Source of the DNA: Parachlamydiales bacterium
GTDB taxonomy: Bacteria; Chlamydiota; Chlamydiia; Chlamydiales; SM23-39
Reading direction: 5' to 3'
DNA: 64,000 nt
Assembly (NCBI GenBank): GCA_050302075.1
Contig: JBNLAH010000004.1
Coordinates: forward strand, 71,787 to 135,786
The position numbers and the translations under genes were made by a program. Below, piece after piece: positions 6,646-9,867 of this stretch (positions within the stretch are counted from its first letter, which is position 1; every line of letters starts with the position of its first letter). The notes under the pieces are model-generated. The model was not told the origin of the DNA, did not search any database, and saw only the letters and a program-made list of their open reading frames with translations.

Positions 6646-9600
6646 GTGGCATATTCAGTTCAAGCTTACAGACCTTCAGAAATTTTTAATCGTAGACGTG
6701 AAAGACATCAGCCTGGTATTCATGCATTAGATAGAAGAGTAAAAAGAGTCTATAGCGATTATCGTTTAAGGCATTTCAATGGAACCCCTCTTAGCTCTAG
6801 AGAAATTACTATAAGAATCAACAACTCTTCTATAGGAAATCTTTTGTCGTTAATTACATCTGAAATGTCATTTAATACCTATCATATAACTGCAGCAATT
6901 ACTAGAACTTGTAATATTTCTAAAAATAGAGGAAATCATATAAATGAAAGTCTTGTGTGGTCAAAATTAATAAACAGATTATTTTTGATGTTAAATGATC
7001 CAAGTCTTCATTTTGAAAAGAGATCTCTATGTAATATTTTATATGCAATTTCTAACAAAGTGAAAAGAGAACAGGTTAACTTAACAGGGGAAGAAATAAT
7101 TGTTTTTAAGAATATTGCATATATATTAGAAAAGCAGTTAACTAATCCTAATGAAGAGTTTAGTATTCTTGATTTAAGCACTATAATAAAAACATTTTCT
7201 ATAGCAAAAGAAAAAAGCAGTAAAATATTCGCGACAAAATCTTCAGAAGAAGAATTCTTTAAGGTGGTTACAAATAAAATTAAGAAAAAAGACATAGGGT
7301 CTTTAAAACCCCGCGACTTGTCAGAGATGGCTTTTGCAGTTGCTAAGTTAAAAAATGATTTTGGGATTTTAGAAAAAATTTCAGATGAACTAAGACCAAA
7401 TGAACATGAAAGTAAGCTTAAATATTTTAATGCTCTAGATTTGAATTTCTTAGCTCAAGCTTTTCACATTGCAAGAAGAAACGACCACTACATCCTAGAA
7501 AACATAGCTAAAGAAATTCATTCAAGAAGTGAAAGCTCTGAAGGTCTTAGAGATTTTTCGCCAAATTCACTATCCTTCCTTGCTTGGGCGTTCTATAATG
7601 CAAATAAAAATCCATACGATCTTTTTAAAAAGCTCGCTGAAGAGATTTATTTTAAAGCAACTAGCAATATTGATGGGCTTGTAGATATTGATCTGGAGCA
7701 ACTCTCCTGGCTTTCAATGGCATTTGCTGGCATGGGAAGAAATGATTGTTATATTTTTGAACTTATTAATCTTGAAATAAACAGAAGAAGTAAAAGCGAG
7801 ATAGGTCTTAAAGAATTATATCCAGATAAATTATCTATGTTAACTCAAGCTTTTAATCTTGCAAAATTAGATGACCATCAAATATTTGAGAATGTAGCCT
7901 TTGAAATAAACAGAAGAAGTAAAAGATCTATAGGTCTTAGAAAATTCGCGCCAGATGTATTGGCAAATATAGCTTGGGCTTTCTATAATGAAAATAAAAA
8001 CCCATATAACATTCTTAATAAAATTGCTGAAGAGATTCCTCAAAGGTTTGATGAGTTAGGAACGCTTATAGACTTCACTCCAGAGGAATTAACTAAGCTT
8101 ATATCGTTATCTTCATATAATGATAATATTCACAAAATTATTGCAATAGAAATAAGTAGAAGATATAAGGAGCTAGGTAGTCTTAATAACTTCTCCCCTG
8201 AAGCGCTCTCAATCTCGATTCTCTTCTTTAGTGAGTTAAATAATAGCGGAAATTTTACTAAAACTTTAGAAATACTTGAATCTGAGATTAATGAAAGAAT
8301 AGATCGTTCTTATTCTCTAGAGGATTTCACCCCATCCGAATTATCTAAAATAGCTAAGGCATTATCAATTAGAAGAAATTATAGCTTATTTGAAAAATTT
8401 GTCTTTTCATTAAAAGTGCGATACAACCTAAACCAATTTAGTGATTTTGATTGTGAAAATTTAGCAATATTAGCAGATGCTTGTGTGCTAGTAAAAAATG
8501 ATAAAGAAATTTTCAGCTACATTGCTAATGTCATAATACACAAAGATCTAAAAAATATTAAATCTAATTACTTGGTTTCGATTTTAAACTCCTTTTATCT
8601 TGCAGAACAAGATTATGGGATTTATGAGTGTATTTGCAAAGAAATAAGAAAAAGAAAGAGAGCTAACAATCTTGCTTATTTTAGCTTACATGATCTAGCT
8701 ATGTTAGTGGTGATTTTTTCTTTAGATGAAAAATATTTTAGGATATATGAAGACATTGCTTATGTTATAAATCAAAAATCTAAAAATCCTAATGAGCTTA
8801 ATAGTTTTGAAAGCGCTGATATAGTTAATTTTGCAAAGATTTATTCTCAAAAAAATATAAAAAGTTATGAAATTTTCAAGCATCTTGCCACCGCTATAAA
8901 TCTAAAGAAAAAAGAAAATGGGTTGCGCTGTTATAACCATGTTGATTTAATTAAGTTGCTCCGAGCTTTTAGCTTTTCAAACAAAGATCACGGGGTATTT
9001 GAGGATATTTCTTATGCAATATGCGAAATAGGAAAAGAAAATTCTCTCTGCCATTTTACTCCTTTAGAGTTAATTCTTTTATCTAAAACTTTTAGTTTTT
9101 CAAGCAAAGATTTTGGGGTATTTCAAGAAATAGCTTTTGCAATAAGAAAAAGAAAGGAACAAAATCTTCTTTGCTATTTTAAACCAAACGAATTATCTGC
9201 TCTTTTCGTTTCTTTTAGTATATTAGAAAAAGATTATGGATTAATTGGTGATATTGTCGATGAAATACGAGAAAGAATACAATCACCACGTGAATTGAGT
9301 AAGTTTCGGCCTATAGATTTAGCACATCTAGCTAAGAGATTAAGCTCACTACATGAATATGAAATTGCAGAAATATTAATAAGAGAATTTTTCAACAGAG
9401 AGATCGATATTGCTCAAAATTCAAAACCAATTACATTAATTTATTTTGCTACAGTTCAATGGATTATTGCTAAGAAAATTGCTAAAATTCCTAACGAATG
9501 GCTTGAAAAATTTAAAGAAAGAAATAACCATACGCTTCCCGTAACTTCAAGTTCAACTTTTGAAGACTCTGTTAAAAATGTTTTAATAAAAATGGGAATC

Positions 9601-9867
9601 TCTAATCACTTTAATAGTGAAAGCACCATTTTTTTTAATATAAATGGAACTCGCCTAAAACTTTTTCAAGTTGATTTTCTTGATAGTGAAAGAAAATTAA
9701 TAATAGAAGTTGATGGACCTAATCATGCCTTAAAAAAAGGTGCTGATTTGGCTAGAGACTTTATTTTAAAAAACTTAGGTTATACTGTTGTTAGAGTTAC
9801 CTCAGAAGAATGGAATAAAAGAGATGATTTAGAAAAAGAAGAGTATTTAAAAAGCCTTATACTCTGA
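6646..9867 (+). CDS. Helical-repeat (OPR/FASTK-like) protein with C-terminal RAP domain
   Basis: About 17 repeats of 37-45 aa (consensus F.P..LS.LA.AF......IFE.IA.EI..R); C-terminus S.FE...VDF..LIIEVDGPNH..RDFILKNLGYTVVRV..EW. Confidence 0.85.
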   Translation: MAYSVQAYRPSEIFNRRRERHQPGIHALDRRVKRVYSDYRLRHFNGTPLSSREITIRINNSSIGNLLSLITSEMSFNTYHITAAITRTCNISKNRGNHINESLVWSKLINRLFLMLNDPSLHFEKRSLCNILYAISNKVKREQVNLTGEEIIVFKNIAYILEKQLTNPNEEFSILDLSTIIKTFSIAKEKSSKIFATKSSEEEFFKVVTNKIKKKDIGSLKPRDLSEMAFAVAKLKNDFGILEKISDELRPNEHESKLKYFNALDLNFLAQAFHIARRNDHYILENIAKEIHSRSESSEGLRDFSPNSLSFLAWAFYNANKNPYDLFKKLAEEIYFKATSNIDGLVDIDLEQLSWLSMAFAGMGRNDCYIFELINLEINRRSKSEIGLKELYPDKLSMLTQAFNLAKLDDHQIFENVAFEINRRSKRSIGLRKFAPDVLANIAWAFYNENKNPYNILNKIAEEIPQRFDELGTLIDFTPEELTKLISLSSYNDNIHKIIAIEISRRYKELGSLNNFSPEALSISILFFSELNNSGNFTKTLEILESEINERIDRSYSLEDFTPSELSKIAKALSIRRNYSLFEKFVFSLKVRYNLNQFSDFDCENLAILADACVLVKNDKEIFSYIANVIIHKDLKNIKSNYLVSILNSFYLAEQDYGIYECICKEIRKRKRANNLAYFSLHDLAMLVVIFSLDEKYFRIYEDIAYVINQKSKNPNELNSFESADIVNFAKIYSQKNIKSYEIFKHLATAINLKKKENGLRCYNHVDLIKLLRAFSFSNKDHGVFEDISYAICEIGKENSLCHFTPLELILLSKTFSFSSKDFGVFQEIAFAIRKRKEQNLLCYFKPNELSALFVSFSILEKDYGLIGDIVDEIRERIQSPRELSKFRPIDLAHLAKRLSSLHEYEIAEILIREFFNREIDIAQNSKPITLIYFATVQWIIAKKIAKIPNEWLEKFKERNNHTLPVTSSSTFEDSVKNVLIKMGISNHFNSESTIFFNINGTRLKLFQVDFLDSERKLIIEVDGPNHALKKGADLARDFILKNLGYTVVRVTSEEWNKRDDLEKEEYLKSLIL

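Follow-up and report, generated by a model that had tools for sequence, protein, structure and literature searches.

A divergent chlamydial protein that joins an 18-unit helical-repeat array to a RAP/DUF559 nuclease-like domain

Architecture of the gene and its product

We analysed a stretch of 64,000 nucleotides from a Parachlamydiales bacterium (GenBank assembly GCA_050302075.1, contig JBNLAH010000004.1, positions 71,787 to 135,786), hereafter the window, and in it a gene at positions 6646-9867 of the forward strand that encodes tandem helical repeats followed by a C-terminal RAP domain. Proteins of this build have a central part in the RNA processing of mitochondria and plastids. The results showed that the window protein is a chlamydial member of the alpha-solenoid plus RAP superfamily (HPR/OPR-RAP, FASTK, RESC6 and mitoribosomal RAP proteins), and that it is a new, divergent and unusually regular member of this known superfamily. 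Positions below are those of the window, all features of the gene lie on the forward strand, and published work is cited by PMC number.

The gene is an intact open reading frame (ORF) of 1073 amino acids (aa) with a GTG start and a stop codon at 9865-9867. The GTG at 6646 is the sole ATG, GTG or TTG from the upstream in-frame stop (6604) to +180 nucleotides (nt), an AAAGG lies about 10 nt 5' of it, and the orthologue P0003 (785 aa) aligns with the window protein starting at residue 1; the extent of the gene was set from the ORF, the sole start and this alignment.

Residues 1-60 (6646-6825) form a leader whose composition is polar and basic, without a hydrophobic segment. It holds 13 K+R and 5 D+E (net charge +8), with 11 basic and 4 acidic residues among the first 50 and a 19-residue hydropathy maximum of -0.8 near the N-terminus, and 19 of 57 positions are identical in the orthologue. 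No signal peptide or membrane segment was found in the whole protein, whose 19-residue hydropathy maximum is 1.57. On composition, the leader is a candidate non-Sec export signal. Residues 61-171 (6826-7158) form an N-terminal helical region, identical to the orthologue at 47 of 111 positions; its nearest language-model clusters are of the RESC6/FAST_1 type, which we take as a lead only. A scan for promoters and terminators gave 26 sites, no excess over the 21.2 +/- 4.3 expected from shuffled sequence.

We then modelled the repeats with a hidden Markov model (HMM) that was seeded with six units picked by coordinate and iterated on the window protein, with 20 shuffled proteins as the control. 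The model found 19 units with a summed score of 660 bits in the real protein and 6-9 units (the six seeds plus 0-3) with 147-316 bits in the shuffled ones. Segmentation, structure model, phmmer and alignment with SKWP-type repeats together define an array of 18 tandem two-helix units at aa 172-928 (7159-9429), preceded by two degenerate partial units within aa 120-167 (aa 120-137 and 153-167) that the repeat HMM places in the N-terminal helical region. This agrees in count and coordinates with the original prediction, made from the letters of the sequence, of about 17 repeats at roughly 7300-9400 and about three degenerate ones upstream. The units are 37-48 aa long (median 42) and share 25% pairwise identity on average (maximum 49%), with the consensus F.P..L..L..AFS....D..IFE.IA.EI..R......L.. 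The expected conservation of the hydrophobic frame, with variable residues after F-x-P, was borne out, since positions 4, 8 and 11 are the most variable, each with 10-12 different residues among the 18 units. These three positions would lie on one face of helix A. Position 33 is K or R in 16 of 18 units.

Traces of recent growth by duplication are visible in the DNA of the array. A three-unit block duplication spans 7582-8037, where 7582-7647 and 7972-8037 match at 82% over 66 nt with a spacing of 390 nt (DNA repeat families D3, also D1), and a single-unit duplication spans 8966-9181, where 8966-9058 and 9089-9181 match at 74% over 93 nt with a spacing of 123 nt (family D2). The units as a whole are degenerate and not TALE-like, which gives no support to the predicted "programmable" character of the protein or to the idea that one repeat reads one base. 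We know of no recognition code for HPR, OPR or SKWP repeats; a reading of one base by each repeat might nonetheless be how the array works.

The pattern of change between the orthologues follows the same frame. Over 11 compared units, position 1 is kept in 10, position 40 in 9, and positions 6, 13 and 22 in 8 each. Positions that mostly changed are 2 (conserved in 1/11), 4 (2/11), 8 (1/11), 11 (3/11), 28 (2/11) and 42 (0/11). A kept frame with changed positions would fit surface residues that determine specificity, and would fit unconstrained surface residues equally well.

Linker helices at aa 929-964 (9430-9537), seen in the structure models, connect the array to the nuclease fold; together with the last repeats they correspond structurally to the FAST1-FAST2 part of FASTKD4. 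The RAP/DUF559 domain itself occupies aa 965-1073 (9538-9864) and has the alpha-beta-beta-beta-alpha-beta order of a Vsr-type PD-(D/E)XK fold, as judged from Pfam, the model, Foldseek and VIA-align. In Pfam, DUF559 (PF04480) matched aa 972-1070 at 3e-10 (40.4 bits, cut-off 20.6), RAP (PF08373) matched aa 1020-1070 at 1.9e-8 (34.6 bits, cut-off 24.2), and REase_MTES_1575 matched the 972-1070 region under its cut-off; Pfam found no other domain in the protein. The C-terminal motifs quoted in the prediction are present, and both families that describe them score above their cut-offs.

The putative active-site motif, D1010 ... E1021-x-D1023-G-P-x-H1027 (9673-9726), was located by alignments. An alignment of 33 sequences, made up of the window protein, 16 RAP C-termini from chlamydiae and 16 short DUF559-like proteins, shows D1010 and E1021 as invariant, with G1024, H1027 and G1045 near-invariant. 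In a second alignment, of the window protein with 19 long relatives, S970, D1010, E1021, G1024, H1027 and W1056 are invariant. D1023 is invariant or near-invariant in the domain alignments. An identical pattern occurs in 3hrl, a DUF559 structure that profile A1 matches at 5.5e-19. The window protein keeps this full DUF559-type catalytic motif, whereas in 9g6k_LJ, a ribosomal RAP protein of Toxoplasma gondii, both the E and the H are gone.

Relatives and predicted structure

An exhaustive phmmer search against 1.84 billion representatives returned 199 proteins at E<=1e-3, 23 at E<=1e-10 and only two, the window protein and P0003, at E<=1e-30. A word-indexed search likewise gave P0003 as the one close homologue, the others being protist FAST_1/RAP proteins (E 3e-7 to 5e-4). 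Among the next 40 phmmer hits, FAST_1 was found in 37 at E<=1e-4 (33 above the cut-off), RAP in 22, DUF1601 in 13 and a pseudouridine synthase domain in 4, and a shikimate kinase domain was found at the C-terminus of P0023 alone. Relatives with a named source come from algae and protists, namely a dinoflagellate, diatoms, a cryptophyte and Mesostigma (Polarella, Cyclotella, Thalassiosira, Mediolabrus, Rhodomonas, Mesostigma). The unit frame F.P..L...AF and the two-helix unit resemble the relatives' consensus L..F.PQ.LSN..WAFA.

Family profile A4, which is dominated by eukaryotic rows, was compared with solved structures and matched RESC6 at 1.3e-42 and T. gondii mitoribosomal RAP proteins at 5.6e-29 and weaker, as well as Chlamydomonas mL115, Polytomella ASA2, RESC8 and FASTKD4 (2.1e-9). 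A single-repeat profile (A5) had RESC6 as its best match among PDB sequences, which was not significant (E 0.23).

Structure models were built for aa 560-1073 and aa 931-1073. The larger model (pLDDT 88.2, pTM 0.75) consists of helix pairs followed by the alpha-beta-beta-beta-alpha-beta domain. It superposed on 9g6k_LJ with Z 20.2 (332 residues), on RESC6 (8fn4_6) with Z 20.0 (376 residues), on 9i05_Xv with Z 19.7 and on ASA2 with Z 19.2, and its top Foldseek match was 9i05_Xl (E 4.7e-8). The comparison with the FASTK family that the prediction called for gave a match to the FAST1-FAST2-RAP module of FASTKD4 (9gek_A) with Z 18.4 and a root-mean-square deviation (rmsd) of 3.2 over 260 residues, where model residues 219-514 correspond to aa 778-1073. 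The smaller model (pLDDT 84.1) shows a helix, three strands, a helix and a strand. Foldseek placed T. gondii mitoribosomal proteins first for it (E 2.7e-5), then I-Bth0305I, Vsr and NGO0050, and VIA-align gave the T. gondii RAP protein 9g6k_L9 (Z 13.5, 135 residues), 3r3p_B (11.9), 1cw0_A (11.4), 9gek_A (11.2) and 3hrl_A (10.3). The two models thus bear out the predicted PD-(D/E)XK-like RAP fold, as Vsr-type with the conserved residues intact. Pfam, the phmmer relatives, profile A4 and the structure matches all place the protein in the OPR/HPR/FASTK kind of architecture that had been proposed for it. The proposed HMM searches divided, with RAP matched and FAST_1 (PF06743) and DUF1601 giving no match to the window protein at E<=1.

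Comparison with known repeat proteins

One close likeness is to organellar RAP proteins. T. gondii mitoribosomal RAP proteins (9g6k_LJ, 9i05_Xv/Xl), RESC6 and the Chlamydomonas and Polytomella mitoribosomal proteins have the same order of solenoid, linker helices and C-terminal RAP. The window protein differs from these eukaryotic proteins in being bacterial, in lacking an organelle-import context and in its repeat period of about 42 aa as against 37-40 aa, and neither FAST_1 nor the DUF6832 and RESC6 models of Pfam match it directly. HPR repeats are described as 37 aa long and OPR repeats as 38-40 aa with a PPPEW motif (PMC6212722), a motif that occurs in none of the 18 units. The remark in the prediction that most repeats are longer than canonical OPRs is correct, and the period of about 42 aa is that of SKWP repeats.

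Human FASTK proteins (FASTKD4, 9gek; FASTKD5) share with the window protein an architecture of repeats, RNA-binding in FASTK and putatively so here, and a nuclease-like RAP domain, and the conserved RAP aspartate (PMC5449608) is present in it. Identity is 14-15%, and the repeats of the window protein are far more numerous and more regular. FASTK proteins are nucleus-encoded and mitochondrial, whereas the window gene lies on a 244.7-kb bacterial contig amid bacterial genes and has a syntenic bacterial orthologue.

SKWP effectors (Ralstonia RipS, Xanthomonas XopAD, Mesorhizobium Mlr6331/6361) share with the window protein an alpha-solenoid built from tandem repeats with a period of about 42 aa. 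Among curated repeat models the best matches came from NCBIfam, with PRK09169 (1.4e-17) and XopAD/skwp (2.9e-7), both far under their cut-offs (for XopAD/skwp, 28.1 bits against 2000), and the GFSKWP repeats of P0023 align in register with the window repeats over more than 400 residues (E 3e-12). The literature counts SKWP proteins among the type III effectors (PMC13667924, PMC7729196), and RipS1, RipS2, XopAD, Mlr6331 and Mlr6361 have about 20 repeats of 40-45 aa (PMC13667924). The structure that the SKWP solenoid matches best is that of the repeats in a RAP protein of Candidatus Rickettsiella isopodorum, and the authors of that paper speculate that the SKWP solenoid recognises RNA (PMC13667924). 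The SKWP motif occurs in no window unit, and the RdRP-like, pyrophosphokinase and shikimate-kinase modules of these effectors are absent from the window protein. It ends in a RAP domain, which is missing from SKWP effectors (PMC13667924).

DUF559, Vsr and I-Bth0305I endonucleases (3hrl, 1cw0, 3r3p) share the fold and the motif with the C-terminal 110 residues, at rmsd 2.0-2.5. They are small stand-alone or intron-encoded DNA endonucleases, none with a helical-repeat arm of 900 residues.

The same architecture as in the window protein is found in other bacterial RAP-domain repeat proteins, namely DUF1601-RAP proteins of Pseudomonadota and RAP proteins of Rickettsiella, Orientia, Parachlamydia and about 15 other chlamydial genomes, whose hosts include intracellular bacteria. 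In the Atlas, a cluster of 814 mostly proteobacterial members is 97% RAP, 90% DUF1601 and 99% Bacteria. Unlike these proteins, the window protein is unmatched by DUF1601 (PF07671) and has only the one close relative. Among the chlamydial examples that were compared, no other array is as long or as regular (330-830 aa, against 1073 aa here).

Bacterial repeat-RAP proteins are already in databases and in a few papers (Parachlamydia 2012, Orientia 2020, Rickettsiella 2026), in line with the statement in the prediction that some intracellular bacteria are reported to have RAP-domain proteins. A RAP sequence of Parachlamydia acanthamoebae was grouped with a plant sequence (PMC3424549, Table 1, 2012), an Orientia tsutsugamushi RAP protein ("OtRAP") and RipS4 are shown beside OPR-RAP proteins (PMC7729196), and the Rickettsiella protein is that of PMC13667924. 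RAP candidates in a few bacteria and archaea are mentioned in PMC8190603. PMC6212722 treats HPR as a eukaryotic family and states that HPR proteins turned up in none of three bacterial genomes. Our literature searches found no functional study of any bacterial repeat-RAP protein and nothing on heptatricopeptide repeats in chlamydia, on DUF1601 or on the RAP domain in Chlamydiae; for the RAP domain with effector and secretion system they returned only the 2026 rhizobial modelling paper and its preprint.

Genomic context and distribution

The genome (1.84 Mb, about 32% G+C) is that of an obligate-intracellular-type chlamydia. It encodes SctV, 67-82% identical to homologues in Chlamydiales, Chlamydiota or Parachlamydiales genomes, with an HrpJ/SctW gatekeeper directly downstream, and two secretins. 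Four full-length TLC nucleotide transporters are also encoded.

The gene order at the locus is trmB-like, tolQ, tolR, upp, a leucine-rich-repeat (LRR) protein, tRNA-Leu(tag), DUF2905 (minus strand), the RAP gene, a 336-aa orphan and DUF192. The metagenome contig L043 has the same order throughout. All nine of its neighbouring genes (9/9) are 68-92% identical to those of the window, whereas its repeat protein shares only 35% (BLAST) to 42% (global alignment) identity with the window protein and falls short of it by 288 aa, with about seven units missing from the middle. The window protein evolves much faster than its neighbours. In G012, a genome of the same family, upp, tRNA-Leu and DUF192 are present and both the LRR gene and the RAP gene are missing.

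No paralogue was found in the genome itself, and a profile search of a collection of genome contigs with the alignment of P0001 and P0003 found no relative. Whole-protein search gave no match in 24 same-family genomes and one weak C-terminal match among 16 same-order genomes. Across the phylum, 18 of 400 genomes, this one included, gave a match to the RAP model; within the same family the count was 0 of 68. The gene is accessory, as follows from the lack of a paralogue, the lack of RAP matches in the 68 same-family genomes and the diverged orthologue amid conserved neighbours. With a survey threshold of 250 aa, which left out a 161-aa RAP fragment at a contig end in G284, 19 RAP-matching ORFs were examined; two are DUF4011-helicase/MTES_1575 proteins, and the other 17 end in RAP and are 330-830 aa long. 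Weak FAST_1 or DUF1601 matches occur in 8 of these 17.

A tree of the C-terminal domain was built by a quick method from 71 rows and 132 columns, after the removal of rows that scored below 45 bits, of duplicate rows, of both helicases and of L038. Only 5 of its 67 inner branches are strongly supported, so that the donor and the direction of transfer are not fixed by it. Chlamydial RAP domains are scattered in the tree (9 changes); the window pair is not placed, and the window RAP domain does not group with the other chlamydial ones at this weak support.

Interpretation

The explanation that we consider best, tentatively and at a confidence that comes close to probable without reaching it, is that the protein is an exported solenoid-RAP protein which binds or cuts host RNA, possibly organellar RNA. 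In such a mechanism the 18 two-helix repeats would make up a superhelical arm whose most likely ligand is single-stranded RNA. Its specificity would come from the hydrophobic frame, the basic residue that ends helix B and the variable exposed positions of helix A. The arm would hand the bound RNA to the C-terminal Vsr-type domain with its motif of D1010, E1021, D1023 and H1027, and endonucleolytic cleavage is plausible because the metal-binding and catalytic motif is intact. FASTKD5 cleaves RNA in vitro (PMC12242768), and the FASTKD4 RAP mutant D531A is non-functional (PMC5449608); judging from the shared motif, its conserved aspartate may be the equivalent of D531 and of the Vsr active-site aspartate.

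The protein would most likely be exported into the host cell, given the type III genes, the lack of a Sec signal, the accessory status and fast evolution of the gene, and the homology of its repeats to those of proven type III effectors. The case for secretion is circumstantial, being built on type III secretion genes, the missing signal peptide, fast evolution and effector-like repeats. That the ligand is RNA rather than DNA, that the domain is catalytic, that the protein is exported and what it targets are points that we infer from the analysis as a whole, and the target might be mitochondrial RNA.

Several observations weigh against this explanation. The repeat region is not basic overall, with 110 K+R against 114 D+E (net charge -4), and the FAST_1 and DUF1601 models stayed without a match. 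The nuclease domain scores higher with bacterial DUF559 than with RAP, and Vsr and I-Bth0305I, the enzymes of known activity that are nearest to it in structure, cut DNA. Elsewhere in chlamydiae, RAP genes are scattered over unrelated loci and have housekeeping genes around them, and next to the window gene no chaperone gene was recognised. Published work adds that mitoribosomal RAP proteins are structural (PMC11652630), that FASTKD4 is reportedly without nuclease activity and that, in PMC12242768, the source of both FASTK points, the essential D429 of FASTKD5 is described as next to an essential basic cluster and is not assigned to the RAP domain. These reports indicate that RAP domains need not be catalytic.

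The first alternative, which we regard as somewhat unlikely, is that the protein acts inside the bacterium and is never exported, as a repeat-guided Vsr/DUF559-type nuclease whose substrate is nucleic acid of the bacterium itself or of an invader (in RNA processing, defence or mobile-DNA exclusion). Besides DUF559 being the best-scoring Pfam model, the weakly supported domain tree has the two orthologues as a basal branch of the RAP group, beside short stand-alone DUF559-like proteins. An accessory, tRNA-adjacent, patchy and fast-evolving gene also suits defence as well as it suits effectors. However, PADLOC defence models gave no match, and no mobile-element or restriction-modification genes were recognised beside the gene. 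Homology links the repeats to those of RNA-binding proteins in eukaryotic organelles and of injected SKWP effectors, and the nearest genes of the variable slot, for an LRR protein and an Inc-like membrane protein, look host-directed. If the protein did act within the bacterium, it would be a more ordinary accessory nuclease.

A second alternative shares export with the favoured explanation and denies catalysis: solenoid and RAP domain would bind, sequester or scaffold host RNA, like the RAP/HPR proteins of the apicomplexan mitoribosome or trypanosome RESC6. The best structural matches are indeed non-enzymatic ribonucleoprotein parts (T. gondii mitoribosomal RAP proteins, RESC6, Polytomella ASA2), and the report on FASTKD4 points the same way. 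Retention of the full D...E-x-D-G-x-x-H motif, which is unchanged between two orthologues that otherwise diverge fast, argues against it, and we consider this alternative unlikely. Quite improbable is a DNA target, in which the solenoid would read double- or single-stranded DNA, as mTERF, TALE and some designed PPR proteins do, and the Vsr-type domain would nick it in the host nucleus, an organelle or the bacterium; the DNA endonucleases Vsr, I-Bth0305I and PvuRts1I are among the closest characterised folds and a designed PPR on single-stranded DNA (5orq_A, E 7.8e-3) is among the weaker ones, but every solved protein that matches repeats plus RAP is RNA-binding or organellar, and no nuclear localisation signal or DNA-binding module was identified, no dedicated search having been made.

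Returning to export and host RNA, a more specific version, which we think unlikely, makes the protein a type III-injected, repeat-coded RNA endonuclease that imitates host FASTK/HPR-RAP proteins and cuts or captures mitochondrial or other host transcripts, its target set by helix-A positions 2, 4, 8 and 11. Under this version, target specificity would be evolving with the host, because hardly any of these helix-A positions is the same in the two orthologues and the array gains and loses length through duplication of units. If it were true, the protein would be the first known case of a bacterial effector that mimics the machinery of organellar RNA maturation, and would offer a natural scaffold for a new code of RNA recognition. 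Export by itself would link bacterial effectors to host organellar RNA metabolism and could help toward understanding how HPR, OPR and SKWP repeats recognise nucleic acid. The protein is a good candidate for such work, as it is full-length, has a regular array of 18 units and a complete nuclease motif, comes from an obligate-intracellular-type bacterium with a type III system, and evolves in a manner like that of host-interaction genes.

Neighbouring genes and other features of the window

The tRNA-Leu gene (anticodon tag) at 6161-6244 on the forward strand is the landmark of the variable slot and is also present in L043 and in G012; Rfam found two tRNAs only over the whole window. Directly upstream of it, at 5236-6123 (forward strand), lies the gene for a 295-aa eukaryote-like LRR protein (LRR_4, LRR_6). 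It is 78% identical in L043 and absent from the G012 slot, which makes it accessory like the RAP gene. We rejected it as a partner of the RAP gene, because no LRR occurs in any of 15 ORFs (at least 250 aa) that neighbour RAP genes elsewhere in chlamydiae; in the window, the two are also kept apart by a tRNA and a gene on the opposite strand.

On the other side, the 336-aa orphan at 10068-11078 (forward strand) has no Pfam, NCBIfam or PADLOC match and is 69% identical in L043. Its hydrophobic stretches, at about aa 135-162 and, over some 40 residues, at aa 286-325, are suggestive of an inclusion-membrane (Inc) protein of chlamydiae. The orphan is not related to the ORF that fills this slot in G012. 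In another same-family genome (L042, G004:C24, 4475-8916), two tandem TPR-repeat proteins of 728 and 741 aa follow directly after upp, and downstream of upp there seems to be, in this family, a variable site where repeat proteins accumulate.

Elsewhere in the phylum, two adjacent RAP-ending proteins of 827 and 801 aa are encoded at L031 (G130:C3, 917-5841); being sisters in the domain tree, they are a tandem duplicate pair. A search for Chlam_OMP6 gave no match, and its control search was likewise silent.

Further along the window, one of the four full-length TLC-type nucleotide transporters lies at 18813-20312 (forward strand), with G000 C1, C5 and C6 as the further locations; shorter TLC-like matches were seen too. 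On the reverse strand at 14230-16040, a LigD-type primase-polymerase gene adjoins an ATP-dependent DNA ligase gene as an end-joining repair pair. A 488-aa protein with an adenylate/guanylate cyclase catalytic domain is encoded at 36954-38420 (forward strand), and a 622-aa protein in which a Ser/Thr protein kinase is fused to a formylglycine-generating-enzyme (FGE-sulfatase) domain at 50170-52038 (reverse strand). A 762-aa leucine-rich-repeat protein with strong LRR_8 and LRR_14 matches, encoded at 42562-44850 on the reverse strand, is a eukaryote-like candidate host-interaction protein.

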